A model generated the notes under the pieces. The model made no database searches. It was not told where the DNA came from and saw nothing but the letters and a program-made list of their open reading frames with translations. The position numbers and the translations under genes are program-made. Positions 23,353-46,554 of a stretch of 64,000 nt of DNA are shown here, piece by piece. Source of the DNA: Rhizodiscina lignyota (lineage: Eukaryota); assembly GCA_010015805.1 (NCBI GenBank), contig ML978124.1, forward strand, positions 1,240,001-1,304,000, read 5' to 3'. Numbering within the stretch: the first letter of the stretch is position 1; every line of letters starts with the position of its first letter.

Positions 23353-24223
23353 CTAACCTAAAACAACCGCCAGGATGATTATCGTGAGGACGACCGCCAA
23401 TATCAACAGCAAACAACACGCCTTGTTCCTCGCATTCCGCTGATGTCTCGCTGCCGTCCGTAACTCTACATCCGCGCCTCTTGTATCCGTCCTCACGCCC
23501 TCTACATTCTCGGCAATGATATCCAGCTGCTCGCCCTGCTCGTGTACCATGTGCGCCACATCCCTGAACAGCTCATTCAGCTCCCCGACGGACTGTTCGA
23601 TGTTCCGGATCTCAGACTCGCGCTCGATGATCAGCGATTCTTGGAAGTCGACTTCGTCTTGTGAGGCGAGACGCAGCTGCTCTTGCTCTTGCTGCTGTCT
23701 TTGGCCGCCGGCAGAGGGTGATTGCTCGCCGCCTTGCTCATCGAGAGCTGCGCGTGCTGCTGCGGCGGATGCGCGCTCTTTCTCGAGGGCGGCGCGTTGG
23801 AGGGATTGGAACTCTGAGAGTGAGGCTTGGAATTCGCGGTTCAGCTTTCCTTGGGTGAATCGTTGTGAAGGCTGGTACATATTAGCAACCTGCTATACCA
23901 TGGCTATGCATAGGAACGAAACGTACCCCCAAATCAGGCCACTGCGACACCCTCTTCAATCCCTCGCCGATATCCTTGAAGCTGTTCGAGGTCTCATCGA
24001 TCAGATCCCGTACTCTTTCCCGCACTCTTTCTGTCTCTCGCTTCGTCCCCAAAAGGCCGACTTGACTTGATAATCGTGACACATTTGACGTCAGTGAGAA
24101 TAGCTTGTCTGATAGCTCGGTGGTGAACTGCCGGAACTCTGGATCGTCGGCGTACGAGGGGTCGTCTTCGCGCCGCCACGTTGTAGGCTGCGATTCAAGC
24201 CTTGAAGTGTCGTCGAAAGACAT
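23353..24223 (-). CDS. PEP12: Endosomal/vacuolar Qa-SNARE syntaxin (Pep12/Vam3 family)
   Basis: Habc region, SNARE motif ERESEIRNIEQSVGELNELFRDVAHMVHEQGEQLDII and C-terminal TM anchor. Intron 23872-23926. Confidence 0.88.
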
Positions 24224-25994: not shown

Positions 25995-26407
25995 ATGGTA
26001 ATATTGAATAATTCTAACAAGCCAATTAATATGTCTCTGACATTTTTAGTGCAGACTACCGGCCCGTCTGGAATCGATAAACTACGCATCGCCCAAAGGA
26101 AAAGCATAGAGACTCGTTATGTACTTCTATGGGGCGTAGACCCTTGGGAATTACCTGTAAGTAATCTGCCTGCAATCAAGCACTAGATACTATGCTAACT
26201 TCCTTCTCAGAGAAAACATGTATACATCTGGCATTGCGTACGTGGAGCCTAGAGAGCCTCTCAACAACCTATCCCTTAGATACCTAACGAGACGTCGAAC
26301 AGTGTGCGTGCGGCTACTCTGGAATCGGCATATACCTAGAGTCCTGTCCTAGATGCGGCCACTCGAGGTGCGCCAACTGTGAAACAATGAGGGTCCAAGT
26401 TCGGTAG
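25995..26407 (+). CDS. Small Cys-rich zinc-ribbon-like protein, copy 1 (~78 aa)
   Basis: Exons 25995-25997 (ATG, tentative), 26055-26156, 26211-26237 (RKHVYIWHC) and 26303-26407 (CACGYSGIGIYLESCPRCGHSRCANCETMRVQVR*). All introns are GT-AG with branch motifs. Confidence 0.75.
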
Positions 26408-27308
26408 ATCAAGTTATTGCTCTTTCACAAATGCTAGCAGGAGGTCTTAGCCCGGTCCTTATTTAACGTAACTTCACGGGGAATATCTAGGGCTGCCACT
26501 CAAACAGGCGTAGTAATCGTATATAATAAGTGTTTATTGTCCTATGTTAAGCTGATCACAAAGGGATGTAGCCCAACAATTAGTATTCAGCAAATCAGCA
26601 ATGCATAACAAAAGAAAAGCCTTCTTCGACGACTATGTCATTAGTGTGGATCAGTGTTCTCAAAGAATCGCAATATTCAAGAGGAGGCCTATCATGCTGG
26701 GCACAAGAGAGTGAGGTTTTACGCGGATTTTGAGTTTGACCGCATTAACGCCTTTCTCAACACTTGCTTTATGTATTTAGGAAGGCATTAAGAAGTTGAA
26801 TCGCGTGAAAAGCTTCTGCAACACATTAGGTCAGCCTGTAAGTAAGATGCAATATCATCTATCGACATTCGACTTTTATTTGGGGTAACGGACCTTGATC
26901 GTATCTTACTAACAAAGGCGCAGCTCTAACTGCATCTCGCCCGTGAAAGGAATGAATCAGCCCAACACAACTGCGTTGCTTCGGAGCTTACTATCTCAGT
27001 CCGGCCTTTCTATACTGCCTCATTTTAAACGCTAACGTTACTTTAGATAATCGCACCTTTTACACTTGCTACGGCGTACTTCTCAATACCACAGCATGCC
27101 ATCCTTTTCACGGCAGGTGTTAAATCCTTGGTCGTTCTAATTCTGATCATAGCGACAGTAATGAAGCTAGCCCTCGATACTGCATCACAACGACGAGCTC
27201 GGTGGTGGAAGAAAATTGTTTAAAGAGTTGGAGTAAGACGTTACACGACAACCGATTGCAGAAGATGTTGACGACAACTTGGTTGTGACTAGAGATGAGG
27301 CCGTGTAT

Positions 27309-27570
27309 GTCGATCGATTAAACTGATTGATTATGTAAATCTCAGTCTAGTTGACTGATTGTCAACTAATTGATTCGACTGAATATTTGGGATCTTAAAG
27401 CTCTGATTGGTGAGAGCCTACCGTTGGGCTTATGCCCTTCATTTGCTGTTCGTATGTAAAGCGTACACGGCTGTATTTTGTATAGCACACCTCTGCTAAG
27501 CCGACTGCAGTTGTCGACCAGTGGCTGATTGTAATATTCGATCAAATCAATCGGTCAGATTGATGGTCAC
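27309..27570. repeat. Palindromic/inverted short repeats, possible decayed MITE ends
   Basis: gtcgatcgatta...tagttgactgattgtcaactaattgattcgac (27309-27379) and a related gtcgaccagtggctgattg...tcgatcaaatcaatcggtc (27513-27556). Confidence 0.4.
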
Positions 27571-28581
27571 TATGTGTCAATGGCTGAGACTTGCACCTTT
27601 TCCTTCGCTGATATAGAGTTGCCTCTATTTCAACTATTTGTTCGATATTGAGGCTGGAGAGAGACAGTCGTGCCAGAGCTCAGGCGCAGCATCATATTAA
27701 TAGGTGGCAGGTCTGCAAGTCAGTTCTATGTTTTCAGTCTCCACAGTTTATTTCGGACGGCCAGACGAAAGAGACAGTTGGTTCTACTGTTCATCGTCAA
27801 GTCGGTAGAGAGTTCACATCGAAGGAAAGAAAGAAGTGCATTGATACGCCTCCAAGGAGACAAAAGTCGAGCCACAGCTGCAAACTGTCACCACCGTTCA
27901 CCACAAAATAAATATTGCGGAAGTCGGCGCAGACAGATTAGGATTCGCCACCTGGTCGAATATGGGCCAGCTAGATTGGTCTGATCGGCTGCCCACTGTG
28001 GGGCGACCAGAGCCATAGTTTCTTCAGTTTATCCTAATCTGGTTTCAAAGTATAGTGTGGCATGGCCAGCAGTCCAGACATTTTCCTTGTTCAAGTTAAG
28101 ATGTTGGGCGTGATGGCATGGAGACCGGCAGCATCTCTAATTTCAAGATGTATTCCCTTCAAGTATGGCAGGATAAAAGTCGTATTCGTGCGTCCTCCCA
28201 GGTCAGGGCTCTGCGATTCTAGCGATGAGGTACTCCGTTGAGGAACGTGGGTTCGCGTCGAGGTGAAGGTAGTGGCTCTGAGAAAGTTAGTGGTGAAGAT
28301 TTATCTCGCGTCGGATGCAGAATAGTAAAAGTTGAGACACCCGTCGGAGGGTAGAAAATGTCGCTCAGCTCTCTGTCTCATGCAACGCAGATCAGTGTCA
28401 GTTGTTTGTTCTCGAAAGAGATCTGCAGACGACGGGAGCTACGTGTGTGGTAGCCGTTCTGACTCTCCCCCCTTACTGCAGAAAGTCGGATGAGTGGCGT
28501 TCTCTCGAAGAAAGTCGGTCGCCAGGGGGTCAATTGACCAATCGAAGCTCAACCAGTACTCCGGAGCCCATACCTGGAGCG

Positions 28582-28974
28582 ATGAGTGGGACAGGTTTTG
28601 CTCACCTCTTTTCTTCCAAATTTCAATGTCAACAGCCTCCCACGCGACCCGGACTCGAGTGTTGGCACACCGACCAATCCCAAGCTACCTCGTGGCTGCA
28701 AGAGGACACGCTCAATGCGAGACCATGGATCTTAGCTGTATGTACGCAGTGTGCCGTGTCGTTTTATCATTGGCCTGCAATGCTGACTGCCTCGTTAGAA
28801 AAAACATGTCTATATGTGGGAATGCGTACGTGGAATACCTTCGAACCCTGACGAGACCTGACTGAACAGTGTACTTGCCGAATCTCAGGAACCAGCATCA
28901 TGGTTGAGCCTTGCCCCTGCTGCGGACACTCCAGATGTGCCAACTGCCAGACGACGAGAGTGATAGTTCGATAA
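28582..28974 (+). CDS. Small Cys-rich zinc-ribbon-like protein, copy 2 (~95 aa; start uncertain)
   Basis: Exon ending PWILA at 28737, 27-nt exon 28799-28825 (KKHVYMWEC) and 105-nt exon 28870-28974 (CTCRISGTSIMVEPCPCCGHSRCANCQTTRVIVR*). Same intron positions and phases as copy 1. Confidence 0.75.
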
Positions 28975-29410
28975 ATGCAAGGCGGGGAGATTATTGGTAC
29001 GGCGCTTTCAGGCGGTGATGAATACAGAGGTTCCAGGGCCTGAGCATTGTGCTTGATAGATCTAGATCGGTAGAACTATCCATTCGGATAGTGACGTCGA
29101 AATGTATAGTATTGGATTTTGTTCGCATTCTATATAATTTTAAGAATCGGATAATTTCGTGTGAACATTACGCTTTTCAAGGCGGGTCCTGGAGTGGGTA
29201 ATTTTTAGAGAGAGGTCGGTGAGTGACGATTGCGTTCGGTAGGGGGGGTCGCGCTATACAAACCCTTCCAGGTTCTTCTTCAGGTCATCCTGCATGAACC
29301 AAGGCGCCTCCAGCTATAGCTTTGTCCTGTTCCCCGGAATTATCATCTGACTCAATTCGTGCAGAGTACTCCGTAGGTGCATAAGAGTTGACATTTGTCC
29401 AGCGCGATTG

Positions 29411-30089
29411 TAACGTCTTTTACGCGGGCTTGGCGGGGCGGGTCCTTCACTCCCAACCCCCTATGATCCCTTACTGATTAATACAAATGCGCTAGCCGTC
29501 TGCAGCGCGTTTCGGGTTCGCCGTGTGAGCGGAACTAGTCCGATTCGACACGTCTTACGCACCACCCATCCTCTTTTTGATCCACACGACGGTTATCGTA
29601 TTGGTTAGATTACGCTCAAGCCCACTAGTCAAAATATTTTTTACTGCAAGGGGCGACTGCGAACCCGAAACGCGCTGTACGGTAGGCTACAAAAATTGGC
29701 TCTGAAAGGGGGAAGCTACCGTGGTTTTCGGGGAGAGCCGTTGTACGCTAAAAAACCCACTAACTCTCTAAGGTAGAGGGTGGATCCCTCCCTTTACGTT
29801 AGCTTGAAGGACAATCTTTACTCCGTAGGAGACGGTAGTTTTGGTTATAGAGGCGTAATTCTAAGGGCGTGCTTGATTTGCAGGTACTGATTATATTGGC
29901 TATACCTTAACCGTGCACTGATCAAGGACAGGCTGCCGAAGCCACGGCGTTTTTGGCGTACACCGACTCCCCCCGAAAACCACGGTATAACTACGTCAGC
30001 TTTGCTGTAAACGGCTAACACGATTGGATTAATTAGTAAGGGGGTCATAGGGGGCTGGGAGCCGAAGGCTGTGTCCGTGAAAGGCGTTA
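29411..30089. mobile_element. Composite non-autonomous inverted-repeat element: outer MITE-like element containing two inner MITE-like elements (Tc1/mariner-pogo type inferred)
   Basis: Outer imperfect IRs 29413-29506 / 30004-30087 flanked by TA. Inner perfect 19-bp IR cagcgcgtttcgggttcgc at 29503-29521 / 29659-29677. Inner ~36-bp IR ccgtggttttcgggg... spanning 29719-29985, flanked by TA on both sides. No transposase ORF. Confidence 0.7.
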
Positions 30090-30501
30090 TCAAATTTCAA
30101 TTGGGTTTTCATTTTCCTCTCTGTGACTAAACGGCATTGCCCATCTTCGGAAATGAAGCACAGTAAATTAAGGAAGTTATGGGAAGGCTCTCCATCCCTA
30201 AGAACTCAACAGCCAGAGCCGCACGAATAGGGGCCTATTGCTGGAATATACTATTATTAATCTCCTTGCAACTTTCCTCAGTCGTTACCGATTTCTTCAT
30301 GCAGCTCACTTTCGTCACGTCGTAGTTATTGCTCTCTCATTACTGCTTTCCCCTCAGAGCCCTCTGGACACAGCTTTGTCATTGCTCGATGCACGGTAGT
30401 ATTCGTGTATGCCAAGACTACACCCGCAGATTCTCATTACCACCTGGTGTTTAAGTATTGAAGCCAAATAGGTTTGTCATTATGTACAGCCGTATTCTTA
30501 G

Positions 30502-30687
30502 AAAAGGCACGTGTCCATCTGGGGAGTGTGTAGATGGAATCCTAAAACTCAGGCCAAGTGTCATGCGATACCTAATGACAAACTTGCATAGTGCTCGTGT
30601 GGCTACAGTGGCATTCCTATACGTACGGATGGGTGTCCTGCCTGCGCATATGCGCGATGTCGTAGCTGCTACACGACGAGGATTTAA
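30502..30687 (+). pseudogene. Zinc-ribbon-like microprotein, copy 3 (disrupted)
   Basis: Exon 30502-30529 is 28 nt (KRHVSIW + extra G + EC, a frameshift). The exon from 30592 reads CSCGYSGIPIRTDGCPACAYARCRSCYTTRI*VR, with TAA where copy 1 has CAA. Confidence 0.75.
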
Positions 30688-31520
30688 GTACGTCCGGCTC
30701 AGATGCGATTCTCGCAGGCAAGTAGGCCGTTCATTGGAGAGCTGATTGTTGAACTCAATAACAGGGTTGTTCACACTTCCCCTGTATGCAAATAGAAGGA
30801 GTGGGTGCAGATGTCGAAGTCTCGTCCAGACCCGGCAATGGACAAAACGGACCGTCTACCTGCCAAGGTTCGCGGTCAGGCTGCTACAGATGAGGGTCTA
30901 TTCAATCAGTCCAGTTCATTCAAGGTCTGGGCTTCGTCTACTAGAGAAAATAACAGCTTGTTTGTTGTTCGGCTATGTTCAAGGGATGGAACGTAGACGG
31001 GACTTGTGTCGAAATAATGGCGGTGCTAGCACAGCTAGGGATAACAAAGGGAGGGGAAAGAGGAGGAAGACAAGAATGAGGAGTTGGTGAGATGCAAAGT
31101 TGGAGAAATCGTCACTCCAATTTGATGCGCTACGTACACCATGCCACTATGGAAAAGACCTCAACTGTGAAATGTCCTCATATGCGCCGGAGATCCCGAG
31201 ATACGGGTGTAGCCACATCCAGAAAGACTAAAGTGGAGCAATGAGAATTGCTGACATGCTTTCCAACAAGGAAATGGAATGACAAAAGGAAGAGGATTGT
31301 CCGATTCGTCGTCATAATTCATCAGAAGATATTCCAAAGAGAAAAAATTCCTGCTCGTTAAACATCTGATCATAGCTTGCTTGCATTCCTAGCTTCGTGC
31401 AACCACTTGTTATGTTCGCATCCAATTTCCCGGCACCGTAATTCTTGCCCTTTGCCTTCTCTCGGATTTTGGGTTTACAAATGTTAATACACTAGCAGGG
31501 CTGAAGAAGCGGAAGACTAA

Positions 31521-33482
31521 TTAATGGATAGCAGGATTGATTCCGACAAGCTTCATACCGTTTTCCAGCACTGTTCTTGTGGCCTCGAAGAGTGTCGCTT
31601 GAACTGGTGTAATACCGTCACTCTCCTCAATACCCTCAAAGCAAGAAGACAGGTGGTCAGTGACGCTCGCGAGATAGGCCATGACGGTCACTGGTTCTAA
31701 ATTCCTGTAAGTGGAGTTGGTGATCTCAGGGTATGTCGCCAGGAGCCGAAGAACGTTTGTGACGCCATCCTCTCGAAGGGAAGCAAAGTCCTCGTCGGAA
31801 AGTTCCACAGGATCCGGTGCAGTCTTGAGAACAGAGCACAGTCGAGCATACCAATACTGCAAGTCTGGACCAGTACCGTGTTCAAATGAAGTCATATGGC
31901 TGATGTCAAAGGCGTGATCATTTGCCCGTCTTGCAGATAATTCTTGGGCCAGAAGTGCAGTAGTTCCAACGGAGGCGACTGTCTCTTCCGTACTTCCAAG
32001 CAGGGTGGCCTTTTCTGGATTTTCCTTCAGTGATGTCCTCATTGCTGCTTGACATTGATCGAGAATGTCGTCCGGTGTATGCCCGCGACCCAACTTCTTT
32101 GACATCTGAGAGACTCCGCTGAAAGACACATACTCCAATTTTCCTGCTAGATCGGGTAAGTCCATGAGTTCGAGGATTTTGAAGAGTCGTGAGAAGTGAT
32201 CCTTGTTATCAGTCGCAACAACGTATATCATCTTGTCGAACGAGTACTTCCTGTCGCGATCCAAGACAGCCGCAAGATCTCTGAGCATATAAGTGCTGCT
32301 TCCCGTCCGGTCGCGGATAATTTCTCGGCCAGCTTTTTTGGTGAACTTCTTCAGGTCAATAATCCATGATGGCCCGTCCGCCTCACAAATTCCCTTGTTC
32401 TTCAAAATATCCTCAACTTCGGCCATAGTCTCTTGACTGACTTGCGATTCTCCAGAGTACTCATCGAAGCTGATATTCAGTCGACTATAGAGCTGATTAT
32501 AGCTGTCGATGTTGATTTCACGAACGCGCTTCCAAAATGCAAGTGCTTTCTCTTCTCCATCTTCCATTCTTTTGAAAAAAGCGTTGCGTTCGGCAAATAG
32601 CTCCTGTGTTTCCAGCTCGGCTGGATCTTTCCCTTCGTCCCGCGCCTTCTTGTAGGCTGCTTGCTCTGGTTCAAAGCGCTCGTATGTCTTGTGATAAACG
32701 TCGAAGAGATGTCGCAGTGGGTCAGCTTGGAATTGTCCTTCGGGTTCAAACTTCTCCCAGCCTGCACCTAACAGGCCAAGCGGCTTACCCCAGTCACCTA
32801 GGTAGTTAATCTTGGTGACATCCCAACCCATACTTCCGTAGATACTGGCGATAGAGGCCCCCAGGATAGTGCTCCGAAGATGCTTGGCCTGAAACTCGCT
32901 GTCGATGTTGGGGGACGAAAATTCGATCACCAACCTTTTGCGGCCGCTCTCAGGTGAGGTAAGATGGTGAAGCCCAAGTGACGCATCTCGACCGTAAGAC
33001 TGCTTGCGGTCATTGATGTAAGAAAGTACGAGACGCGGCAGAGTCCGTGGTTGATAAAACATCCGAAGATGCATGCCCTCTTCAAATGGACGACGAATAA
33101 AGAGCGGGCATTCCGGGAACTGATGAGATCGAGTTAACTCTAGTGCCGCCTTGTTGGGGGTAGCGTAAAGACGTAACAGGGAAGACTGTGCACCAACCTT
33201 TGTTATGAGATCCAAGGCCAAAGCGTGATAGTCGGCGCCGTGGCTAAGCTTCGGCAATATGGCAGCCAAATCTCCATTGTCAATATTACTGGGCCATTGA
33301 ATGGAGTTGTAGGCGTTGGCTGGGTCGCCCCCTACAAGGCTGCTGAGGATGTCTGCAAAGTACGACCGGGCAATATCCCGAGGCTTGTTCAGCACATCAG
33401 CCTCTGCAAAATGCGGTATTGGAGTTTGCAATCCAATGTCACCCAGAAGGGCTTCGAGGCCAGTAACAGTGAGGGTTGACAT
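31521..33482 (-). CDS. Divergent arginyl-tRNA synthetase-like protein
   Basis: IEFSSPNI...HLRSTILG, INYLGDWGK, FDEYSGES, YMLRDLAA, FDKMIYVV and TGPDLQYWYARLCS match fungal ArgRS. Probable in-frame 78-nt intron 33120-33197. Confidence 0.85.
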   Translation of the reverse strand: MSTLTVTGLEALLGDIGLQTPIPHFAEADVLNKPRDIARSYFADILSSLVGGDPANAYNSIQWPSNIDNGDLAAILPKLSHGADYHALALDLITKVGAQSSLLRLYATPNKAALELTRSHQFPECPLFIRRPFEEGMHLRMFYQPRTLPRLVLSYINDRKQSYGRDASLGLHHLTSPESGRKRLVIEFSSPNIDSEFQAKHLRSTILGASIASIYGSMGWDVTKINYLGDWGKPLGLLGAGWEKFEPEGQFQADPLRHLFDVYHKTYERFEPEQAAYKKARDEGKDPAELETQELFAERNAFFKRMEDGEEKALAFWKRVREINIDSYNQLYSRLNISFDEYSGESQVSQETMAEVEDILKNKGICEADGPSWIIDLKKFTKKAGREIIRDRTGSSTYMLRDLAAVLDRDRKYSFDKMIYVVATDNKDHFSRLFKILELMDLPDLAGKLEYVSFSGVSQMSKKLGRGHTPDDILDQCQAAMRTSLKENPEKATLLGSTEETVASVGTTALLAQELSARRANDHAFDISHMTSFEHGTGPDLQYWYARLCSVLKTAPDPVELSDEDFASLREDGVTNVLRLLATYPEITNSTYRNLEPVTVMAYLASVTDHLSSCFEGIEESDGITPVQATLFEATRTVLENGMKLVGINPAIH

Positions 33483-34333
33483 TTGCCGCTCGGGCGATTT
33501 CTCGCTGTCGGTTGTTGTTCAAGAGGTGTGAGAGTTCGATGTTTTCCGTCCGCCTGAATGAAGTTGTGGCGGCTTTCGTGCATGGAGCGCATGACGATGG
33601 TTGTCGAGGTGTCAGTCATCTCGAGCGTCGTGGTGGAAGCAGATTGGATCTCCTATCTGCACCCCTAGGGTGGCTTTTCCAATGAACTCGGGAGCTCTAC
33701 AACCCTGTAGGGCACTTCTCGGACAGCTGCAAAGATTTGGACTTGCCATCATCTCTACTGTACTTCATTTGCCTCAAGCTTGGAGCTTAATAAGGTGGAG
33801 CATAACACGAGATGTTGTGTGCAGGGGAAGTCGGCATTTCTCGAAGACTTTTTCGGTCCTTGAGGCCCTCCGTGGTCCTCTTCCTCGATAGAGTAATCTC
33901 GCATTTCGGGCCGAAAGGTGTTACTTCATAATGTTACCTACCTACCTTGTCGCATAACTAGGCGCCTCGAGCATGTACTGTAAGGCGTTATTTAAACGAG
34001 CAATCAAAGATCGAGCTCAAACCTCTTCAGAATTTTCTTTTTTGAAAAAGAGTAATATCGCAGTTATCTATGTACCCTTCTTTGTCATTAAAAATGTGTC
34101 GTTGCGCCAGCGCCCTAGAGGAGAAAGCGTCGACCAACATATCGACATTTATCTCTCGGAATTAAATGAATGTGATATATAAAGCAGGATCCGCGACACA
34201 AAACATATGAATGTGAGATAAACGTCAGGCGCTTCCAAAGCTGCGAAAACTCCGATACGGCGCAAGAGTCATCTGGGCTCTCCACCGAAATGGCCGCCAT
34301 CTCCATTCCCGTCCGCTGGAACCGAAGGATGCA

Positions 34334-36552
34334 TCACACTGGGAGCGCGAGGGTCTCTGAACTGCTAGTGGCTCTGGGCATTACCCCTACTCCTGGGTAG
34401 GCCAAGTCCCCAGCTCCACTGACTGGTGGGTCCGCGCGCACCTGTCTCTGCTCCACATCCGAATCTTGCGGGTGATCGTGAGCAGACCTTAGCACTGCCC
34501 TTATTCCCTTCGTCAAGAAGTGGTAGACACACTTCGAAAATGTCACAATATTCACGTATGCAACGACTGTCTTCCACCATTGATCCTTGCGCCGCATGGC
34601 ACTGAGCGCACGAAACACAAGATTCGTCGCAGCCGTAATGATGACTATGGCAATAAGGAAGGACCCGACATTCATTTTGAAAGGCATGATCGTTTGCGGT
34701 ATTGAGAAAGTGGCGGTAGTAAGCGCAAAAGGAGCAATGATCTGAAAGGAATTAGCTACCTGAAGGTGAAGAATTTCCGACAGACGAACCGCAATTGTGA
34801 ATTCCGTGGCCACTCCGTTGTGTTGAGCAGCTTCATAACCTTGGAGGCCTAAGCGAACTTGTTCGAGGTCTAGGCGGCGTCCTTCAATGCTCAAATGATG
34901 TTGGAGCTGCATGTTCACAGCTTGGTAGAAATTATCGCAATCTTCATGCAAGCGAATCAAATCCCGCTGGAGATCTTCCAGGCTATCGAATGTTTCGTTG
35001 ATAGCGTCAAGTAATAGCGGAATACCCGAAAGCCGGCCATTTGAGATCTCTTGGGAAGAACAATCCATTTCCGTGAAGTAGCTGATATCGCGGTTGATGA
35101 ACCTCTGCGTGGCCTTATTTGTCTTCGAAAGAGCACCTATGAGGTGGTTCAAGAAATCCATAGCTTGTAGGATCCAGTCGAAGTTTTCTTTAGCGTTTTC
35201 AGCTGGATCATCCGTGGTGCCGAGGTGTCCAGATAAATGAGAAGAATATCTTTTCGCCTATTAGAATGATCAGAATTCAGAAATAGTTCATAATAAAAAT
35301 TGTGGCTCATACCTGTATCTCTTGTTTAATAATGTCTTGCACAGTCCCGATGAGTTCTTCCCACTCTTTTAGCGCCTGTGCCGTTCTGGAGTTCAGTATT
35401 GTAAGAAAATACTCTCTAGGGTTCCAAATCGGAAAGTTTGCATCAAATATGTCGCTAAATTCATTCCAAGCTATCGGATCGGAGAGAAAGCCTTGTATAG
35501 GTTTAACGCTATCTTCGAAGTCTTCGTCATCGACGTCAGTATCGTCAAAAGCATACGCGATCCACCGCGAGTTATCTGACCCGCATATGGCGAATGAGAA
35601 CTGAGCTTCGTATACGACATAATGCTCCAGGCCTCTAGAGTGCGGTCTACGCACACTCAGGAATGATAAATCCAACTCCATACACTTTCTTCTTGGTTTT
35701 ATCTCTTGATTTGGCAGCGACGAGCATATTCTCAAAGGGCAGAACGGTAGATGGAAACTGAGCTGGAATCTGATGAAGCCCTTGGTCTACAGAATATCGT
35801 AAGCATTCCTTCAGTGATCAACATCAGTACACAAAGCTAATATTTGAAACCTCAGGGGACCTACCGGAATTTTGACTCCCATTGATGCTTCACGCCCCAA
35901 GTGTCTCCATATGGCCTCTTTCAAGGCCGAGATTTGGTGGCCTGCCGCTGTCTTCGCAAGTGCCAGAACGTAGGATGGGTTTGCATTAGCAATGTAACTA
36001 CGGCAAAATGATTAGCTAGGATAATTCATTAACCCGAGAGAAAGGGAAGTCCTTGCATTAAACGTCTGTCCGCATCAACTTTGTTTTCGCAATCAAATCG
36101 CTATGACGAACTCAGTTTAGCTTGCGATACGCTTGGGGAAATAACAGGGATCAAGTGCGTACCGGCTCGTCCAAGTGACGGCAGAGGTCTGTTGCATCTA
36201 GCTCATCTGGATGTGATCGCCGACCCTCACTGACGTCCCCACGTGGACAATTCCTTTCATCTAACCAAACAGTACACTTCAAATTATCCAGTGATGTGCT
36301 CCGGAGGAAAAGTTCCAAAATCTTGACTTTACATGACGGTATTGAACCTTCAGTGTCCTTCAGGAAGTCTTCGATGTCAGTAGAGCGGGTACAAAACTCC
36401 GTTTTTGCCTCGATCCTACAGCGATCTTCTTTATGAATTTCATTCCGGTCCTTTGAAAATATCAAGTCCCAGTTCTTAGCATAATGCCGAGCCCCATAGC
36501 TTCTCTTTTCGCAGTTCATTGCTCTCTGTGGTCTTAATCGCTCTGGACTCAT
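34334..36552 (-). CDS. Fungal hypothetical protein with CorA-like C-terminal two-TM region, multi-exon
   Basis: ORFs 36151..36552, 35307..35735 and 34334..35161 lie in order with splice signals between them. Motifs FQLSFHLPF, YEAQFSFAICG, DPIAW and PIWNPREYFL. Helical region followed by two hydrophobic segments. The CorA-like label is from recall of architecture. Confidence 0.65.
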
Positions 36553-37859
36553 GTAGGATGCACTCCTGTGCAGCCAATCAGGAAGGTCAATGTATACTAA
36601 TCAGCCATATCGTCTCGTTAATGGTAAGTATTATGCCAAATTCGTAGCGATCATTTGCAAGGATCAGCATTGTGAAAAGAATGCACAAGTTCAGAGTATG
36701 CAAAAGTGAAGATCGGACACGGCGGGCCATGAAAAACTCTCATCAACAATGCCTAAATGCTTCAGAGAGCCCAACTATCCTAGTGAAGACCACAAGGCAA
36801 CGGGTGCTGCTGAATTCGTTGGGCAGGAAGTAAGGCAATCGACTTCCAGAATATCATGGCGCGGAGCACGCCACGTCATGAAAGGAATTGGATGACAGTG
36901 AAAATTCGCATTTGCATAAGGCATACTGCATTGACTTCGTAAGGCTGCATTTCACGACAGACAGAGCTCGTATGTTGATGTTTGACTCGTGCCACAGTTC
37001 GTAGACTGAATGGTGCGCGACATGCAAGGCGTTCGGGGCATTGTGTTGGCGGATGCCAACTTTCGTCACTTCATCCAGATGAATATCATGGGGTCCGCGC
37101 TGACAGTGTGTATTGAGCGGAATGCTAAGTGGACAGGCCGTTGATCTGGGTCACAAGTCATCTGTACACGTGATAGAGGTTGTGTCGTGGCCAGTTTTGT
37201 ATCGCGGCTATTTGTATCGTTGGGTACTGGACGCCCTGTTTGATTGATGAATGAAAAGGCAATCGTAGAGAACAGCGCAGCGCGATTACCGCTGCATAAT
37301 AATCCTGCAAGTAAATGCTGCTGAAGTCAACACTGGTCGAGGCTTCTGGGAATCTAGTATAAATGGGTTTCACAGGGGCAAGTGCTATTTGAATCAACGA
37401 CTCAGCTATCCTGCCAAGCACAGTACGATAGAAGTTCTGAGTCATCCCACAGCGATGTGGATCGTACCCCTTGTCTTGCGGGGATTGGCCGAAGTGGAAA
37501 GGTCTCTCTACACGATATTCAGTACAGCAGGCGTCGATGGATACAGGAAGTGTTACTTGATTATGTATCATAATCAGCGTCAGTGATAGCCTAAATGACA
37601 CGAACTTGGACTCCTGACTTATGACCACTGAGGATGGAAGGGGGCCCAAATACCGGTCTGCTTTGAAAAATGAACAAGGCTGAGGCTGTGCACATTAGAC
37701 CCACGAGCTATTCGGACTCCTTTAGGCCTTTTATCTCGCTTGCCAAAAAAAATTGATGGTCGCCTTCGTTTCTTCCACTCCATTTCCACCTCAGATTTCC
37801 AAGCGTAGCTTATCACATCCCCAGATACGATTAACTCTTTGAAGCTAACTTTATTTAGG

Positions 37860-40536
37860 ATGGTAGTAGAGGCGCTAGCTGCCGTGGGGCTAGCTGGAAA
37901 TATTGCTCAGTTCTTGGATGTCTTGACGAGGCTCATCCGTGGGACCCACGAAATATATACATCCGCCGACGGCTCTACAAGAGAAAATTCGCAGCTTGAT
38001 GAGATATCTGATTACGTATTGACTTTAAGCAGTCGGCTGGAATCGGACATTGAGTCAAAGCTGAAGCGCAGTCGAGCTGAACAGGAATTGATTGTACTTG
38101 CAAGAAGGAGTAAGGATGAAGCGGATAAACTTCGACTGAAGCTATCCAAGGTCAAACTAAGTCCTGGCGAAAGTAAGATGGGTAGCCTTGTTCAGTCATT
38201 CAAATGCGTCTGGAAGTCGACCGAATTTAAGGCTATGGCAAAAGAAGTGGACACTTGCAGGAAGCTTCTTGCGAATCAGATCCTTGATTTGATAAGGTAA
38301 TATTGCCCATCCTACCGGGACCATCTTCGCTCACTATGTCACTATCATAAGGGAGGACACTTCGACTATCCTGAAAGCCCTTAGAAACCTCAAAGATGAA
38401 GCCAAGGAAACCGATCGTGTTCGACAAACGCAATTCCAGGCTTTGGCAGACGATCTGCACTCGATACACTCGATAAAGTTGCGGGGGGACTCAAAGCCTG
38501 ATGAGCTTGAGTCGAAGGTAGCGTCTTCAGATTTTGCTATACTCAAAGATGTGCTAGAGGGCGTCGTGGAAACCGCTGCGAGAATGAGAAAAGAGCAACT
38601 GATTCTGGCACATTTGACTTTCGAGCAAATCAAAGCTAGGTATTCGAGGCTACCGGAAGCACATGCTAGAAGTTTCAGTTGGATCTTCCGGGAACGGACT
38701 GAAACCGATGAATACTCACCAAAGCCCAAAACCGGATTCACCGAATGGCTGAAAGGGCCCAATCTGAATGACCATTTCTACTGGATCTCAGGTAAGGCAG
38801 GCAGCGGGAAGTCAACTTTAATGAAATACATCTGCGAACATCCAGATACTGCGGAGCATCTACTCCTTTGGGCTGGACACTATCAGCTTCTCACTGCAAG
38901 CTTTTTCTTCTGGGATTCTGGAAGAGAAGCAGAGGTGGGTTCCCTATTACAACAGTCTCAAGAAGGCCTTCTACGGACGCTACTATTTGAAATCTTATCC
39001 AAATGTCCAAAGCTAATCTCGAAAACGCTGCCATTGAGGTGGGAAAGAGAGCACCAACTACCATGGACTGTTCTGGAGCTCCTGCAAGTCTTTAGAACTC
39101 TTGGAAATAACTTGGACTCTTCTTGCCGATTCTGCTTCTTCATTGATGGTCTGGATGAGTACAAGGGCGAACCAAGTGATCTCTTGGACGTTGTTTCACG
39201 GTTGGCAAACTGCGAAAATGTCAAGGTTTGCATCTCAAGTCGGCCCTGGCCGGTGTTCAAGGCAGCTTTCGAAAGTCTGGCCCATCGTCGACTATTCGTA
39301 CATGACTTAACGAGTGACGACATTGCGGCATACGTTCATGACAGGCTTGAGTCTAATTCTCTTTTTGTTCGAGCAAAGTGCGAAGATTCCAGATATCAAG
39401 CACTTGTGGACGAAATTGTAGAACGAGCTCAAGGAGTGTTCCTTTGGGTTTCCTTAGTGGTTCGGTCACTTCTCAACGGCATCACCAATGCAGACACAAT
39501 ACCAATCTTACAGCGAAGGCTAAGAGCTCTGCCAACGAGGCTACAATCTTTCTTTCAACATATGCTGGATTCGATAGATGACGTATACCAAGTTCAGATG
39601 GCTCAAACTTTCCAAGTTGCAACTGGTGGGCAAACTCAATTACCTCTATTCCTCTATTATATGATAGACGAGCTAGACGAGGACCCTCGATATACTATCA
39701 ACTTGCCAGCTCAGACTCCGGGAATATTGCCAAAGCGTGGCCATAATGGCTCTGACCTGACAAGTCTGCCAGAAGAAATTATCTTGGCGGAACAAAAGAT
39801 GGCTACTCGGCTTGAAGCTCGCTGCAAAGGGCTGCTTGAGGTTTCGACCCATTCTGGGCACAATCGATTTCCACTCAAGAAAGTCGATTTCTTGCATCGT
39901 ACCGTCAAAGACTTTCTGAAGTCTAAGAAGATATCAGAAGAGCTGCAGGAAAAATCTGGTGATCATTTTCAACCAGATAGCGCCATTTGCCGTGCTTTTC
40001 TCGGGGTTATCAAACAACTTCCATTTGAGGCAGATGAGCATCAGGATCGAGGCTACCTTTTAAGTTTGATCGACGACTTCCTGTACTACGCTCGTAGAAG
40101 CGAGGAAAATACAGCTGACCTCATTCACGAGGCCATCAGGGAGCTTGAGCGAAACTTGATCAGCAGATATCCGGCTAGAGATCGGACCCATTGGGCGTCG
40201 AAGAGACCACATGTAGAGCGAATCCACGGAGTCTTATTGCAATCCGCCAAAGCTAATTCGGTATTTGAACTTTGTGTTCAGTACGGACTTATAGCTTATG
40301 TAAAGAGGCGGATAGCAGAGGATCCTTCACTCTTGACACGCGTCTGGCGAAAGCCGCTCTTGTCTCACGCAGATCATCCGTCGATCACAACCAAGTATCC
40401 TACTGTTGACTCAAAGCGCATGGTTCAACTCCTGGTTCAATGTCAACCTGAAGTAACAGACGCTGATTCTCATATTCAAGCCGACGCTATCGACGCAACT
40501 GTTACATCCGAGACGGATGGCTTCCATTGCTTGTGA
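37860..40536 (+). CDS. NACHT-domain (STAND/NLR-like) protein with fungal N-terminal helical domain and no C-terminal repeat array
   Basis: EALAAVGLAGNIAQF N-terminus, WISGKAGSGKSTLMK Walker A, FCFFIDGLDE Walker B, VCISSRPW, AQGVFLWV and VDFLHRTVKDFL. Intron 38297-38351. Confidence 0.9.
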
Positions 40537-41086
40537 ACAGATCGGTTCGAAGATTACACAACTTTGCTCAGATTTACAGTCATAACTCTGAATCGCTAGC
40601 AAGTATCCTTCTGGGTCAAGCCGAGCGAAACCATCGGGAGAGCATTTGCAAGACTGGATACATCTTCACCCGTCGTGAGAGAGAAAACTTTCTGCGCGGG
40701 TGTACATGTTGGTCTAACCAAGGCTATGCACTCACCCGCCTAGTTGTAGTTACACCGAAAGAAACGGTAATTGGCATCAAATTATGCAAATTTCCATTCT
40801 GGCGTAAGCAGCGTCTATCAGCGAAAATAGCATTACAACTCGCTAATGTACAGCCAGAAAATGAATACGGTGATCTCTCGTCTTTTAGGTTGCCCACCAC
40901 GGCCAGCATTCGCCGTTTTCCTGTACCTCCGTATGCCACTTGCCAAATAAGCCGATGGTCCGAGTTGGACTAAAATCTCCTGCAGCTTCCAAATTCGCAC
41001 GTAAACTAACAATGAGAGTCTATTTATTACAGTAATAGCACTCGATAGCTTCTTGATTGCTGAAGCTGATCTAAAAAATCGCAATG

Positions 41087-41706
41087 TTACGGCTTTTGGA
41101 TGTCGCTTTGCGACCAAATGCCGGGAACAACTGAACGTCGAAAGTCTTTGTGGGAAGCAGTATTGCTATTTGGACCAGCGCGTGACACCCGGGTGTATGA
41201 GCTGCGATACGAGGATCGGGCGGAGTATCGAACATATCTCTCGCATGTGTTGTGAGGTTTGGTAAGGGAGAAAGGCTCTAAGGGAACGCTCGAAGGATGT
41301 CGATCAGGAGGTGAAATTAGAGCTTCACAGGGCTCCGTTGGAGGGGCGTCGGAGCAGGTGCTAGCGCTTCCGTGGTAGTGTATCACTTGTTGATGAGAAA
41401 TCGAGTATCCAGCGAAGTTCACGCCTTTTCGCTGCGATGGCGCCTTCGTTAAACGCATTCGTACTCGTGTTGTACGGCAGTTTCCACATCGAATATGGCC
41501 ACAAGCAGGACATGCATCCGCGAGGATCGATATACGAGAACATCCGCATGTGCACTAGTGGCGTGTTAGCTTTCAAATGTATATACAGTGAGTAATGCTT
41601 CCCGTTTGCATACACATTCCCACACGTAGACGTGCTTTTTCTAAGAAGATAGAGTTAGCTTACATGGCTAATAGCCTACCAGCAAGAGTATATCACATAC
41701 AGGCAT
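41087..41706 (-). CDS. Zinc-ribbon-like microprotein, copy 4, with stop lost and ~120-aa C-terminal extension (5' end uncertain)
   Basis: ...MP (41706-41701), intron 41700-41641, exon 41640-41614 (KKHVYVWEC), intron 41613-41555, then CTCGCSRISILADACPACGHIRCGNCRTTRVRMR reading on into ORF 41087..41458. Confidence 0.7.
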
Positions 41707-43269
41707 CGTGTGGTGGCCCCAGAATTTGCTGCCGCTGCAATTCGTTCGATTCGGCCCCCTTACGAGAACCAGAGGGGATAGAGTCTGGAATTTTCTGGAG
41801 ATATCGCGATCCCATTGCCACACGAGACCAATAATATATTGGGCCGTCCTTTGTTTGTGTCTGCTCTCGCAAACGCGTTCTCCGAGTTACGTGACGTACC
41901 GATAGCAAACGACCAGGCCGGAATACGCACAAGCAATCTTGGAATGTTTATGAGAGAGTTGGTTTGCAGTAGCAGTAACAAGCGAGTGAATTCTCAAAGG
42001 AGTGGAATTTCGGACACGTAACAAAAACAAATTCAAACGCGCCGCCAGCTCCTCAGCTCGATCAATTATCGTACATATCTAGTTGAGATGACATTAAGAG
42101 ATGCGAGGGTAGATATCGGGCAATGAAGAGCGGTTGGTCCTTTGTGTTCGTGCCTGGTGAAAAGAGAGGCTGATCGTTTTGAAGCAAACTTATGTTTTCA
42201 TCGTACCAGGGCGCGGACGCGCGGAAAAAGCCGTGACGCGTTGACAAACTTTGTAGGTCCGGCAAAATTTCCGCCGAATCCAATTGGACGAGCATCCCGG
42301 CAGTCTAGTCCCCAACTAAACAAGGGCTTCGAAAGGCAGCCAAAGAGCCGTGCACAAAGAAATTGTCGGCCCACAAGGTGGTCGAGCCACGGCATAGGTA
42401 GAGGAAGTTGTGTTACTCCTTAAGGTGGTCAGCTCTGCAAGTTTTGACGGTCAGGCAGTGTCGGAGCACGAAAAAGTACAAGGAGATGCATATGGAGTGG
42501 ATTGATTAAGGAGAGAAATGATAGATCTACTGTACGAGAAGAAAGAAAAGCTATACATAATGTATCGTGCACTGCTGACGTCGGTGGCGCTATACCTAAC
42601 ACCTCCTGACAAGCAGTGAGGACTTAGGAACAGTCGGTTCGAGCTGGGGTTATTAACTTTTTGGAGATCGAGCAGCCACGAAATGCAGAAGATCGCGTTC
42701 GAAGAGCGCAACATTGAGGTCGCAAGTGAGTTGAAATATGCGGCATGCTCTTTAATGTTTTTCACCTGAGATGTAGCTTGCTGGGACTCCCTTCGTATTG
42801 AGCGCGTGGACTGCATGGCTTTTGCATGGCGGTGCTCATCAGGTTGTCACGATGAGTGAATTGGAAGCAGAACCTCCTGTCGATTGCAGCTCCGTCATGC
42901 CCCACATCGGTTGTGCGAATCACTACTCCGTATATGGAGAAGTGCTCCCTACAGAGCAGTGACAAACTTCGGGAAACTTTGTATATACCTACACTTTGAC
43001 CACATGGCAGCATGCATCCGAAAGATAGGCGGGAATACCAGCCACTCGGTTCTCCATCAATTTGCCATCCTGTTGCTCTTTTCATGCTTCTTCCCCTTTT
43101 TTGCTCTTCTTTATGGATCTTGGCTTTTGAGTTCTCCCTTAGAGTCAGTGACATTGAGGATTTTCTATTTGAGGCGGCAATCCGATCGGCGTAACATCTT
43201 AACGGGTGCTTCCCAGCGAACCTTGGAAGGCTCTTCGGAACTTAGTTAAGTAGAGAACTCGGTTGGTGA

Positions 43270-45360
43270 TTCATTGGAATATCGGGTATCGGCACGAGGC
43301 CTTCTCCTTCCGGCCGGTGGTCGCTGGCGACGACAGGTGCGACACAACCTGAAACAGGATTTGGTCAGTCAACTTCCACAACTCGTTCGTAAGCCAAGCA
43401 GCACCCTGTTCCATAGACTTCCTTTCTTCGGTTTTCTTCGGTTTTCTTCATGGCATCGAGAACTGGTTTTATCATTGCTGCTATGACGACGATGGCAATG
43501 AGGAGAGATTTGAAGTTCACCCTGAACCGTAAAACTTTCTACGGTATGTAGAAATATGCGGTAGCAAAGGGGAAAGGCAGCGATAATCTGAAAGCTGTTA
43601 GATGTGCGCAAGATGACATTATTTACGGATTCGTAACCATGCCGAGATCATAAATTCTGTAGCCACTTCATTGTGTTGAATTTCTTCGACGCTTCGGAGG
43701 GTCAAAGCTGAACCTGCGCCTGCTAGCAGCTGCTCAGCTCATTCTGCGGCAGAAGTACGGAAAGCGGAGACGTCACCTTACTCACGGTTAGACCAATCTC
43801 TCGCAAGACGCGTTTAGATGAAGCAATCCCTGCAGGTGGTGAAAGGGTTTCAAAGTTTTGATTGTCTCTTAGATGGTTGGAAGGATCAGCCAGTTGCGAC
43901 TATCGCGTTCCTGAGAAAATTCGATGTCGGAGAATAGTCAATATCCCCATCGTCAGAACCAACCTCTTCCAAGCCCAGATTGTTGCCGAGAGTGAATCCA
44001 GCAGCCTGTTGAATATATACATGGTTGTGAGGTCCAATCGAGGTTTTTCTTAAGTCTTTCTGCTCCGTCACCCGCAGATCTCGGACCCTCGCGAAAACAG
44101 AGGAAGGACGACACGTCTGATCGGTTCATGATCCGTTGCCTCACCGCAATCATCCATATAATCATTGTTACGGGCGAAGCCTAGCAAAAAAAATGAAAGA
44201 CGAACATGCATCCAAGTCCCGTATAATACTGTGCTCTACAGTTGAAACAAAGCCCTCCAACTTCTTTTGCAATTGAGCGCTTCGTGACTTCAAGACTGTA
44301 AGATAGTACTTTCGCGGATCGGTTATGGGAACGTTTGCATCGATAATATCCTCTGATTCGTCCTAGGCTATAGGATCAATCTTAATACCATCGCATGAGT
44401 TGTTTTCATCTTCCGAGTCTTCATCTTCGAAGATTTCGCCCTCAACATTCGTGTCATAGAAGGCGTAGGCGACCAACCGCGAGCTGTCCGATCCACATAT
44501 GACAAAGGAAAACTGGGCTTCGTACATGTAGTAACTTCCATGATAAGAACCGAAAGGTCTACTGGTCGCCTTCCCAGCTTAGTTTGACTCTGCTTAGACG
44601 ACGAGCACTGTCGTAGCGCACAGAACGGAGGATTGGGGCCCAAATGAAACATAGTGTGTCCTTTTGCTTAGTGCTTTATTAGAGTCCGAGACAGTGACAG
44701 TTCGTATTACAGAAATTGTATGGACTTGCCGAGATTTTTGCACAAATAGACGGCTCACGAATCAAACGTTTGCCGATAGCATCCCTTGATGGCGGTGTTT
44801 GCCAGCAAGTGCTCGAACATAATAAGGATCCAAGTCCCGTGTGTATGTAATAATGGTTAGTCATGACTGATCTTGAAATTGAAAAGTTATGGATACAACT
44901 TGCATTAGCCGTCTATCCGTAACCGATATATTCGCATTACTGAACCGTTGTGACAAGTCGAGTTCGCTTTAAGAGAGTCTTCAAGACCGGAACCATAATT
45001 CGCTCTATACTGGTAATTTCAGAAAGTAGTAGAGCTTCGTTGTGCTGAGCGAGTCTTCATGCGCCTCGGAAGCGACGGTGTCAGCCAGATCGTCGTGTGC
45101 CCTATCATCAAACTATTGCACTGTGCTCCTTTCCTGCCGTACCAGTCCCGACTTGAGATCATGGAGTCCAGCGTTCTGGCAGGAGAATTCCACATCTGCA
45201 ACCCCACGCGAAGGCCCTGAGTCCGCAAAGACTTTCTCTCTCCGAAGTCTGCGTCAAGCTCTTTTCCCTTGAAATCGATGTAGCAAGGGATCTCTATGAT
45301 TTTCCGGCCCGCTAAAAAGATCGGATCCTATGCTCTGGCGAGGAGGTCTGTTCTCCTTTT
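43270..45360 (-). pseudogene. Pseudogenised paralogue of the CorA-like gene at 34334-36552 (ends approximate)
   Basis: YEAQFSFVICGSDSSRLVAYAFYDT...DPIA*DE...DANVPITDPRKYYLTVLKSR aligns with the intact copy. TGG->TAG at 44363-44365. NSFQIIAAF segment near 43600 is followed by a frameshift. Confidence 0.8.
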
Positions 45361-46240
45361 GGTGCCCATTATCTATTGGTGTCCCTAGAATTGATATCGT
45401 ACCGATATATGATGCGCAGAGCGGATCATGATTAGTAACTGCACAAGAATCAGTCTAGTCCTGATATTGAAACGAAAGCGTCAATATATCGTAGGTGCCC
45501 TGGTATTAAAAGAATTTTTTTTGTTTGGGGTGGGGGGGTTCTCGAGGCTTTGACGGCGAAGGGACTTGAAAGGAAACCGGCATACTAGCAAATAATAATT
45601 TGGAATTCCATCATTAAAACCAGAAATTCGCTTGGAGCGTATTCGTCAAAACTAGTGTGAGACAGTAAAAAGAGGTGATAACAGTTCGTTCAGGCAAACG
45701 ACCGAAGGAAACAAGGCAATCGATTGCAAAATTACCCTAGCTCGTAAGCAACCGCCACGTAGCTAAGCATGGTGGGCAATGCTGGTGCGAGGAACGCGGT
45801 TGGACACTTCGTCCGCAAGGCGTTCTTTACATTTGCCATCTCATCTGGGGTAAGCTTTTGTATACAGCAGTGGCGTTTTGTCCGAAAACTGTTGAATCAT
45901 TCAGCTCTTCACACGCGTTATTTAGTGCGGGGAAGAAAAGAGACAAGGATAGTCGTAGGATGGAACAGTTTTGAATGTAAGCAGTATTCTGTGCTTTGCG
46001 AAACAGGTACAAACGTTTCTGGGCAACCAACCTCCGGGGAGGTCTCAATGTCTTGCAGGTGAAGGAAAGCGAACGTGTCCAGCTGGGAGTGCTTATCGAT
46101 CACGACTCGGATTTGTTCCACTACTGGCCTCGAGTAACCTCGGAATTATTAGGCCTCTCCACGTTTCTCGTGACTTCGCTGTCGTAATGCGGCTCTGGTA
46201 CCAACTACACAGCCTCGAGAATTTGCCAACTCAGCTCGAT

Positions 46241-46554
46241 TTATCGAACCTTCACCTTTGTGATCTCGCAGTCCTCGCGTCTGGTACGGCCACATCCTGG
46301 ACATGCATCGAAGAGTATGCTGGTTCCTGCGTTTGCGCGCGCTGTATTTCGGGTAGGGTCAGGCGCCGTTCCACATAACCTACGCATTGCCATATATACA
46401 CATATTATTTTCTGAGCGCAGTTAGCATTGCAACTCCAAAGTTAGATGGACATGAGTTTATGTACATACGCCAGCTCCAGAGGGTTCGGTGTGAGTAAGC
46501 TTTCTACCTCCGGCAACTGGCCATATCATTGATCAATTGGAGTCTCTCTGGAGT
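46241..46554 (-). pseudogene. Zinc-ribbon-like microprotein, copy 5 (disrupted)
   Basis: Exon 46411-46384 reads K*YVYIWQC (TAA at 46405-46407). The last exon 46341-46241 is 101 nt rather than 105: ..ANAGTSILFDACPGCGRTRREDCEITKVKVR*. Confidence 0.75.

Follow-up and report, generated by a model that had tools for sequence, protein, structure and literature searches.

Compact zinc modules of the RanBP2/NZF type (PF00641; examples are the Npl4 NZF finger 1q5w, Nup153/RanBP2, RBM5 and TAB2) are domains of about 30 residues in which a Trp two residues before the first Cys leads into a CxxC knuckle, a beta hairpin and a second CxxC knuckle. The PROSITE-style pattern of the RanBP2 type has a 10-residue spacer with a conserved Asn, and NZF fingers carry a Thr-Phe pair that binds ubiquitin. 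A second group, the archaeal C(P)XCG micro-proteins (HVO_2753/DUF1610, 6ydh, PF07754), consists of very small, single-exon proteins with four CxxC pairs; according to a report on this group (PMC11241148), five of 14 purified proteins were without zinc, and AlphaFold2 was unable to tell which sites were metal-competent. The present study concerns a gene family found in a 64,000-nucleotide (nt) stretch of the Rhizodiscina lignyota genome (GenBank assembly GCA_010015805.1, contig ML978124.1, positions 1,240,001 to 1,304,000 of the forward strand; hereafter "the window"), whose members share a cysteine-rich core of 43 residues. The window holds six copies of the gene, three intact (c1, c2 and c4) and three decayed (c3, c5 and c6). 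The evidence presented below makes it probable that these are six paralogues of a small-protein gene specific to the Pezizomycotina, arranged in an old and dispersed cluster, and that the product is an intracellular binding module of the zinc-ribbon kind.

A preliminary description of this DNA had listed five copies. All five lie where it placed them, its total being one short: repeat finding combined with a family hidden Markov model (HMM) uncovered c6, about 700 nt past c5 and on the opposite strand. The intact copies are assembled from three exons (Table 1). The middle one is a micro-exon of exactly 27 nt in c1, c2 and c4, as originally described, with the consensus [KR]KHVY[IMV]WxC. A CC pair is completed by the first residue of the last exon, which has the sequence CxC-x11-CPxCGHxRCxNCxTxRVxxR, a pattern identical to the one first proposed save for the spacer, which is 11 residues long and not 10. 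All six introns are canonical, measuring 44-65 nt and displaying GT donors, CTAAC or CTGAC branch sites and YAG acceptors. The ends of exon 1 in c1 and c2 (PWELP and PWILA, respectively) match the start of the PWEL[AP]KKK motif of homologues, in which a basic run follows. The micro-exon and last-exon peptide patterns occur four and three times, respectively, in the six-frame translation of the window and not once in 200 shuffled sequences; a chance origin of the two patterns is excluded. Scanning the window with the HMM built from 59 cores (see below) gave six last-exon matches with E values from 9e-19 to 6.7e-8, the next one being at E = 0.18; more than six orders of magnitude separate the sixth match from the noise. 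The 5′ portions of the models are less certain. The N-terminus of c1 could be at a second ATG located 12 codons further in, and the candidate first exon of c4, comprising just two codons, is the weakest part of the c4 model, another upstream exon being possible. The last exon of c4 continues beyond the 34-residue core part into a 121-residue tail rich in Ser, Pro and Arg.

The spliced reading frame of the intact copies is under purifying selection, as had been proposed. Compared pairwise over 43 spliced codons, c1, c2 and c4 showed 11/6/24, 14/11/31 and 13/9/29 differences at codon positions 1/2/3 (chi-square p about 0.002 in each case). Furthermore, conserved residues for which synonymous codons exist are specified by a different codon at 15 of 27, 16 of 24 and 19 of 27 positions in the three pairs. 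The accumulation of changes in third positions, together with this codon divergence, leads to the conclusion that the protein, as read across the splice junctions, has been selectively maintained. The Nei-Gojobori proportion of nonsynonymous differences (pN) ranges from 0.21 to 0.28 among the three copies; the synonymous counterpart (pS) was not relied upon because it is inflated by the many two-fold codons, and selection was judged from codon-position counts and codon identity with no pN/pS ratio quoted. The same inflation applies to the homologous loci described below, where pN is smaller than pS in 45 of 45 pairs.

Last-exon DNA identity among the intact copies amounts to 55-67 positions out of 102, and no DNA similarity is shared outside the exons and splice signals. 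Together with the codon divergence, this identifies the copies as old paralogues that have kept the protein across the junction. With three of its six copies decayed, the cluster is an old one undergoing birth-and-death turnover; to describe it as being under local expansion, as was done initially, is too strong, given the age of the intact copies and the decay of half of the total. In a tree of the 59 cores, c2 and c4 are sisters (96/75) and c1 lies nearby, the cores being too short to establish monophyly of the window copies.

The splice model could be tested on 34 metagenome loci, retrieved with an alignment of the closer subgroup and including some instances of the same gene from different samples. 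In 23 of them, among which are contigs of 17-169 kb, the DNA encodes the core without interruption. In nine others a GT..AG intron of 46-58 nt divides the core precisely between the codons of the two Cys, that is, at the very position where an intron had been proposed to split the CC dipeptide in the window. The two remaining loci are L027, where the contig breaks off, and L033, whose downstream sequence is aberrant; in both, only the upstream intron is present. Most loci have an acceptor located one to three codons ahead of the basic run. Additional information came from comparing contig L013 with the genomic contig L018. Three blocks of the two sequences are 100% identical, and two GT..AG segments, of 222 nt and 61 nt, are missing from L013; the 61-nt segment directly precedes the ..AKKRYTYVWQCC.. 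exon. L013 contains a 136-codon open reading frame (ORF) that ends in the core, and L014 likewise is without the 61-nt segment. Judging from its contig structure, L013 appears to derive from RNA and would thus be a transcript-like sign of expression and splicing in a homologue. The structure of L013 and the pattern of intron presence and absence support both junctions of the 27-nt exon. On single contigs, diverged paralogue pairs lie 4-5 kb apart (L009/L018 and L006/L021), indicating that local clustering recurs in other fungi.

Relatives of the window genes are also found among deposited proteins. The profile search proposed at the outset, carried out with the last exons of the three intact copies (34 positions) against 1.84 billion representative proteins, returned 42 relatives at E <= 1e-3 (best E = 6.7e-9), with lengths of 62-282 amino acids (aa). 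The core is contiguous (..W.CC.C..CP.C....C..C..) in 28 of these proteins. The other 14 gene models keep the last-exon motif and are wrong upstream from it: six read the micro-exon in another frame, two insert 14-20 in-frame residues between W.C and C.C, and six skip the micro-exon or start after it, many of these last showing a Gln, corresponding to the CAG acceptor, directly before C.C. The expectation that gene callers would struggle with this family was therefore well founded. All named members are annotated "hypothetical protein" and belong to Dothideomycetes, Leotiomycetes and Sordariomycetes (class assignment checked for one species per class). The genera represented are Lepidopterella, Lophium, Parastagonospora, Pyrenochaeta, Boeremia, Microthyrium, Hyaloscypha, Leptodontidium, Amorphotheca, Cadophora and Fusarium. 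One member, P0024, bears the UniRef label "RanBP2-type domain-containing". Two further searches with the family profile, a near and a longer one, gave 18 and six proteins, respectively, none of them from the window. The long matches P0055 (718 aa) and P0056 (697 aa) turned out to be gene-model fusions carrying no Pfam domain, and a longer search with a natural 40-residue stretch of c4 gave no match. A Pfam search with the window exons and four further family members yielded nothing above the cut-off, and a literature search, by description and by locus tags, returned nothing relevant to the family. Overall, the family is undescribed and uncurated, yet it is not new in kind or new to the databases, since correctly spliced homologues stand deposited as hypothetical proteins in at least three fungal classes.

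Conservation was assessed in 59 distinct cores, comprising three window sequences, 39 taken from database proteins and 17 from the loci; identical peptides were left out, as were the additional cluster members P0044 and P0045 and the loci L027, L030, L032 and L033. The 59 sequences align without a gap over 43 columns, 56 having the full 43 residues and three ending one residue short. The core of the intact window copies takes the form [KR][KR]xxYxWxCCxCGxxxIxIxxxxCPxCxxxRCxxCxTx[KR]VxV[RQ]. Eight residues (W7, C9, C12, C24, C27, R31, C32 and C35) are invariant, and five more are nearly so: C10 is present in 58 cores, P25 in 54, G13 in 53, I17 in 52 and Y5 in 51. The three intact window copies carry every invariant residue at the exact length and, by their sequence, belong to this uncharacterised Pezizomycotina family of seven-Cys small proteins; c3, c5 and c6 fail the same comparison. 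The net charge of the core is positive in 58 of the 59 sequences, with a median of +5. In a crude scan by the Kyte-Doolittle method, not SignalP, none of 36 database members and none of the three window models showed a hydrophobic N-terminal segment, in keeping with the earlier statement that a signal peptide is missing.

The core is predicted to fold as a zinc-ribbon-like domain, as had been surmised. An AlphaFold2 model of member P0012, obtained with a 28-sequence alignment, gave predicted local distance difference test (pLDDT) values of 93-98 for the core (residues 55-97) and of about 57 for the N-terminal half. In this model the first strand is formed by the micro-exon part (the micro-exon encodes the first nine core residues) and the last strand lies at the C-terminus. 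Compact matches obtained with the exhaustive aligner VIA are NZF/RanBP2-type fingers, including 1q5w (Z 2.8, root-mean-square deviation (rmsd) 2.1 over 31 of 31 residues) and 2gqe (rmsd 1.4 over 30 residues), and ribosomal zinc ribbons. Structure neighbours in the ESM Atlas are zinc-ribbon clusters, with TM values of 0.67-0.72 over 41-47 residues, and a feature comparison in the same resource gave three unnamed Ascomycota clusters scores of 0.88-0.89. A profile search against the PDB gave weak matches (E >= 0.011) to the MIOS finger, a ZZ finger, FYVE, eL37, DUF1610/HVO_2753 and rubrerythrin. Collectively, the models suggest a weak resemblance to RanBP2/NZF zinc ribbons.

Table 1. Family copies and two neighbouring genes in the window (E values are from the family HMM).
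Feature	Positions	Strand	Details
c1 exon 1	25995..26156	+	54 codons from first in-frame ATG; ends ..DPWELP
c1 intron 1	26157..26210	+	54 nt; GTAAGT..CTAAC..CAG
c1 micro-exon	26211..26237	+	27 nt; RKHVYIWHC; E = 7.4e-5
c1 intron 2	26238..26302	+	65 nt; GTACGT..CTAAC..CAG; between two Cys codons
c1 last exon	26303..26407	+	34 codons + stop; E = 9e-19; modelled protein 97 aa
c2 exon 1	28582..28737	+	52 codons, first ATG of open frame; ends ..RPWILA
c2 intron 1	28738..28798	+	61 nt; GTATGT..CTGAC..TAG
c2 micro-exon	28799..28825	+	27 nt; KKHVYMWEC; E = 3e-5
c2 intron 2	28826..28869	+	44 nt; GTACGT..CTGAC..CAG
c2 last exon	28870..28974	+	34 codons + stop; E = 1.2e-14; modelled protein 95 aa
c3, decayed	30500..30687	+	E = 3e-13 (last exon), 2.4 (micro-exon)
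c3 micro-exon-like stretch	30500-30529	+	1-nt insertion; Tyr to Ser
c3 intron	30530-30591	+	weak donor GTAGAT
c3 last exon	30592-30687	+	His to Tyr; Gly to Ala; stop three codons early
Arginyl-tRNA synthetase gene	31521-33518	-	
NLR gene	37809-40973	+	NPHP3_N/NACHT + DUF7791; N-terminal 163-aa frame without Pfam match
c4 last exon	41087..41554	-	155 codons + stop; E = 1.5e-14; modelled protein 166 aa
c4 intron 2	41555..41613	-	59 nt; GTATGC..CTAAC..TAG
c4 micro-exon	41614..41640	-	27 nt; KKHVYVWEC; E = 4e-5
c4 intron 1	41641..41700	-	60 nt; GTATGT..CTAAC..TAG
c4 candidate exon 1	41701..41706	-	ATG CCT only
c5, pseudogene	46241..46411	-	E = 2.9e-8 (last exon)
c5 last exon	46241-46341	-	CxC Cys and Cys32 lost; His to Arg
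c5 intron	46342-46383	-	
c5 micro-exon-like stretch	46384-46411	-	28 nt with in-frame TAA
c6, decayed	47237..47587	+	E = 6.7e-8 (last exon), 0.024 (micro-exon)
c6 possible exon 1 remnant	47237-47294	+	ends ..SWKL; out of frame with micro-exon
c6 micro-exon-like stretch	47356-47379	+	RCVYVWAC; 24 nt, one codon short
c6 intron	47380-47443	+	GTATGT..TAG
c6 last exon	47444-47587	+	Cys27 to Ser; Arg31 to Pro; extends 13 codons past usual end

The lesions of the decayed copies are itemized in Table 1; the copy nearest to c5 is c2 (62 of 102 nt identical). The window as a whole has the traits of filamentous-ascomycete DNA, with introns of about 50 nt and CTAAC branch sites, and its long ORFs specify Cut8, an MTR4-type helicase, ELP1, a lipoate ligase, aconitase and EF-G-like proteins. 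The family copies occupy two gene-poor stretches, 24100-31500 and 41700-48300, which contain few long open frames and have a G+C content of 0.44-0.48, compared to 0.50-0.54 in the flanking housekeeping genes. An inverted repeat at 29717-29987, between c2 and c3, has 38-nt arms that are 89% complementary and 195 nt apart; it could be a small foldback or an element resembling a miniature inverted-repeat transposable element (MITE).

Copies c1 to c3 are positioned upstream of the arginyl-tRNA synthetase gene. The fusion protein P0056, from Fusarium pseudocircinatum, starts as a family member and bears the source name "arginyl-tRNA synthetase" while being devoid of a synthetase domain. The vicinity of c1-c3 to a true synthetase gene and the name given to P0056 may be a coincidence or a trace of conserved linkage. 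Copy c4 and the NLR gene are convergent, 114 nt separating the end of the last NLR open frame (40973) from the c4 stop codon (41087). An amyloid-motif pairing between the two was considered and found to be unsupported, because the c4 tail shows no sequence similarity to the N-terminus of the adjacent NLR.

The surroundings of 19 homologous loci were also inspected. Pfam families could not be assigned to 64 of the 70 neighbouring ORFs of at least 130 aa; the matches obtained were to MFS (two ORFs in L024) and, once each, to peptidase M20, HET, WD40 and ESF1. No neighbour family recurs among these 70 ORFs, and consequently no guilt-by-association lead emerged. Two loci have unusual structures. 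In L034 (2058-3190), a frame of 303 codons containing degenerate WD40-like repeats runs on into the exon that precedes the micro-exon, and the core seems to have acquired its N-terminal part from a decayed repeat protein. L033 has a HET-domain frame (9-902) and, about 2 kb downstream from it, a micro-exon-like sequence, KKHTYIWQC (3097-3123), after which the family core is not continued; L033 is probably a broken family copy.

How might the protein work? The product of each intact gene starts with a disordered part that changes fast, followed by a short basic run and, at the C-terminus, the 43-residue core. In the model, the CxxC (Cys9/Cys12) and CPxC (Cys24/Cys27) knuckles could hold one zinc in the manner of RanBP2/NZF fingers; the four residues are put in one Cys4 site because this is where the model superposes on NZF fingers. 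The strand contributed by the micro-exon would pair with the C-terminal strand, and Cys10, Cys32 and Cys35 may form a second, three-cysteine site. The lack of any signal-peptide-like segment, the strongly basic core and the disordered, variable tail make an intracellular binding module the most likely role, in which a metal-stabilised domain carried on the variable tail would recognise a nucleic acid or an acidic protein partner.

Several observations weigh against this interpretation. Metal binding is deduced from motifs only, and such motifs can be metal-free, as the report on the archaeal proteins warns (PMC11241148). The number of Cys residues is odd (seven), leaving the second site with no conserved fourth ligand. 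None of the 42 database members passes a Pfam cut-off, and the searches turned up no homologue of known function. On the structural side, Foldseek found nothing in the PDB at E <= 1e-3, the best VIA score (Z 2.9) is below the caution level of the tool, and no sequence match to a solved structure is significant (best E = 0.011). As for the genes themselves, the large database searches did not return any of the window copies; their splicing is modelled from sequence, c4 exon 1 and every N-terminus likewise being models; and the RNA origin of L013 rests on contig structure, the contig bearing no label to that effect.

A different metal arrangement was put forward in the preliminary description, which counted seven Cys plus the His of the CGH sequence, at core position 29, as eight ligands for two zincs. 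This His is found in c1, c2 and c4 alike, three residues before Cys32, and with eight ligands two tetrahedral sites would be complete. A His also occupies position 29 in the distant members P0002 and P0029 and in the truncated locus L032. However, only five of the 59 distinct cores have it, three of them from the window; this position more often holds Tyr, Thr, Val or Ala, and the decayed c3 has Tyr, variation that would not be expected of a ligand essential for the fold. On account of this count, seven Cys plus His with two zincs is not the rule for the family. It could hold for the window lineage alone, where the extra His29 could complete the Cys10/32/35 site. We thus regard the two-zinc module as a tentative possibility.

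A role akin to that of metallothioneins or metallochaperones, the protein buffering or handing over zinc or copper, would account for the presence of seven Cys in 43 residues and of several gene copies, and an incomplete three-Cys site could lend itself to metal exchange. Against it, metallothioneins are generally richer in Cys and devoid of aromatic residues, whereas Cys makes up 16% of this core, Trp and Arg are invariant, Tyr, Ile and Pro are nearly so, and there are no internal gaps. The confidently predicted beta fold likewise points to a rigid domain with a structural site, and a role of the metallothionein type is judged unlikely.

More speculatively, the core could represent a new fungal metal module in which a complete Cys4 ribbon site is combined with an open three-Cys site (Cys10/32/35) that a partner or a second copy closes in trans, as in a zinc clasp. 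The variable N-terminal tails would then choose the partner, and the clusters would turn over alongside non-self-recognition genes of the NLR/HET type because their products act as adaptors, decoys or inhibitors in fungal conflict systems; for the window lineage, this would mean closure of the site in cis, by His29. This scenario strikes us as quite improbable.

Also improbable is a secreted or exported effector or antimicrobial peptide, stabilised by disulfides and possibly released after the KK/KR run. The proteins are indeed small, Cys-rich and fast-evolving outside the core, a dibasic run directly precedes the core, and several gene copies cluster together with pseudogenes where genes are otherwise sparse and NLR and HET genes are close by. 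The N-terminal scan described above speaks against secretion, as do the odd Cys number and the CxxCG/CPxCG knuckles and RanBP2/NZF-like model, the last two being typical of metal sites. Finally, the notion that the copies are non-functional, being either remnants of mobile or repeated DNA or exons of a larger unrecognised gene, would suit the fact that three of six are broken and that the window genes are known from sequence alone, but is already disfavoured to the point of being negligible by the frame-specific nature of the changes, by conservation over three fungal classes of a core with no internal gaps, by the confinement of repeat similarity to exons and splice signals, and by homologues that form small genes of their own, complete and with the core at their end, one of them apparently in spliced form.

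The core is a domain of filamentous ascomycetes that is conserved, maintained by selection and without a name; it occurs in at least three classes and in several copies per genome. Its hosts include plant pathogens, Parastagonospora nodorum and Fusarium among them. The family also illustrates how gene finders fail on small genes: a 27-nt exon between introns of about 50 nt is misread in one-third of the deposited models, and the presence or absence of introns among paralogues suffices to fix the correct gene model with no need for RNA data. With its 43 residues, seven Cys and invariant Arg, the core is suited to quick nuclear magnetic resonance and metal analysis, making the question of metal binding cheap to settle.

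The core was compared with several types of known zinc module. PF26652 (Zn_ribbon_double) is a zinc-ribbon family restricted to Ascomycota ("probable double zinc ribbon domain-containing proteins"), as the present family would be, and the nearest named eukaryotic feature cluster in the ESM Atlas, at a score of 0.77 that is within the chance range of the tool; the proteins of that cluster are, however, about 225 aa long, and PF26652 is not named in the literature searched. Cross-brace modules (FYVE, ZZ and RING; for example EEA1 FYVE 1joc, RSC8 ZZ and the MIOS C-terminal finger 9dx0) have a first set of three ligand pairs whose spacing the CxxC-x11-CxxC-x4-CxxC of the core mimics, and gave weak profile matches, none significant (E 0.011-0.05). 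Unlike them, the family keeps three Cys pairs and one extra Cys, with no fourth ligand pair, and its model pairs knuckles 1 and 2, as in a ribbon, and not 1 and 3.

With the archaeal C(P)XCG micro-proteins the family shares very small size and the CxxCG and CPxCG knuckles, and in both groups the number of predicted sites that hold metal is open to question, to go by the archaeal report (PMC11241148). The profile match to 6ydh is weak (E 0.1-0.32, below thresholds), and PF07754 matches one of the 42 members, at E 0.003 and 17.8 bits against a cut-off of 33.2. Aside from their archaeal origin, single exon and four CxxC pairs, proteins of the HVO_2753 type differ in being without the Trp-anchored first strand, the CCxC sequence and the invariant Arg-Cys of the fungal core.

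The closest likeness in the model is to RanBP2/NZF fingers. PF00641 itself matches none of the 42 members even at E <= 0.1 and no window exon at E <= 10, and superposition on such fingers gives low scores (Z 2.1-2.8, rmsd 1.4-2.3 over 30-31 residues). A W-x-C-x2-C first knuckle and a C-x2-C second knuckle are nonetheless present in 59 of 59 cores, as they are in RanBP2/NZF domains, with the Trp again two residues before the first Cys. The family departs from that type in its spacer, which is 11 residues long in all 59 cores and has Asn at its fourth position in just seven, in having no Thr-Phe ubiquitin-binding pair, and in the extra Cys of its first knuckle (CCxC); a third knuckle, RCxxC, and a C-terminal strand extend its domain to 43 residues.

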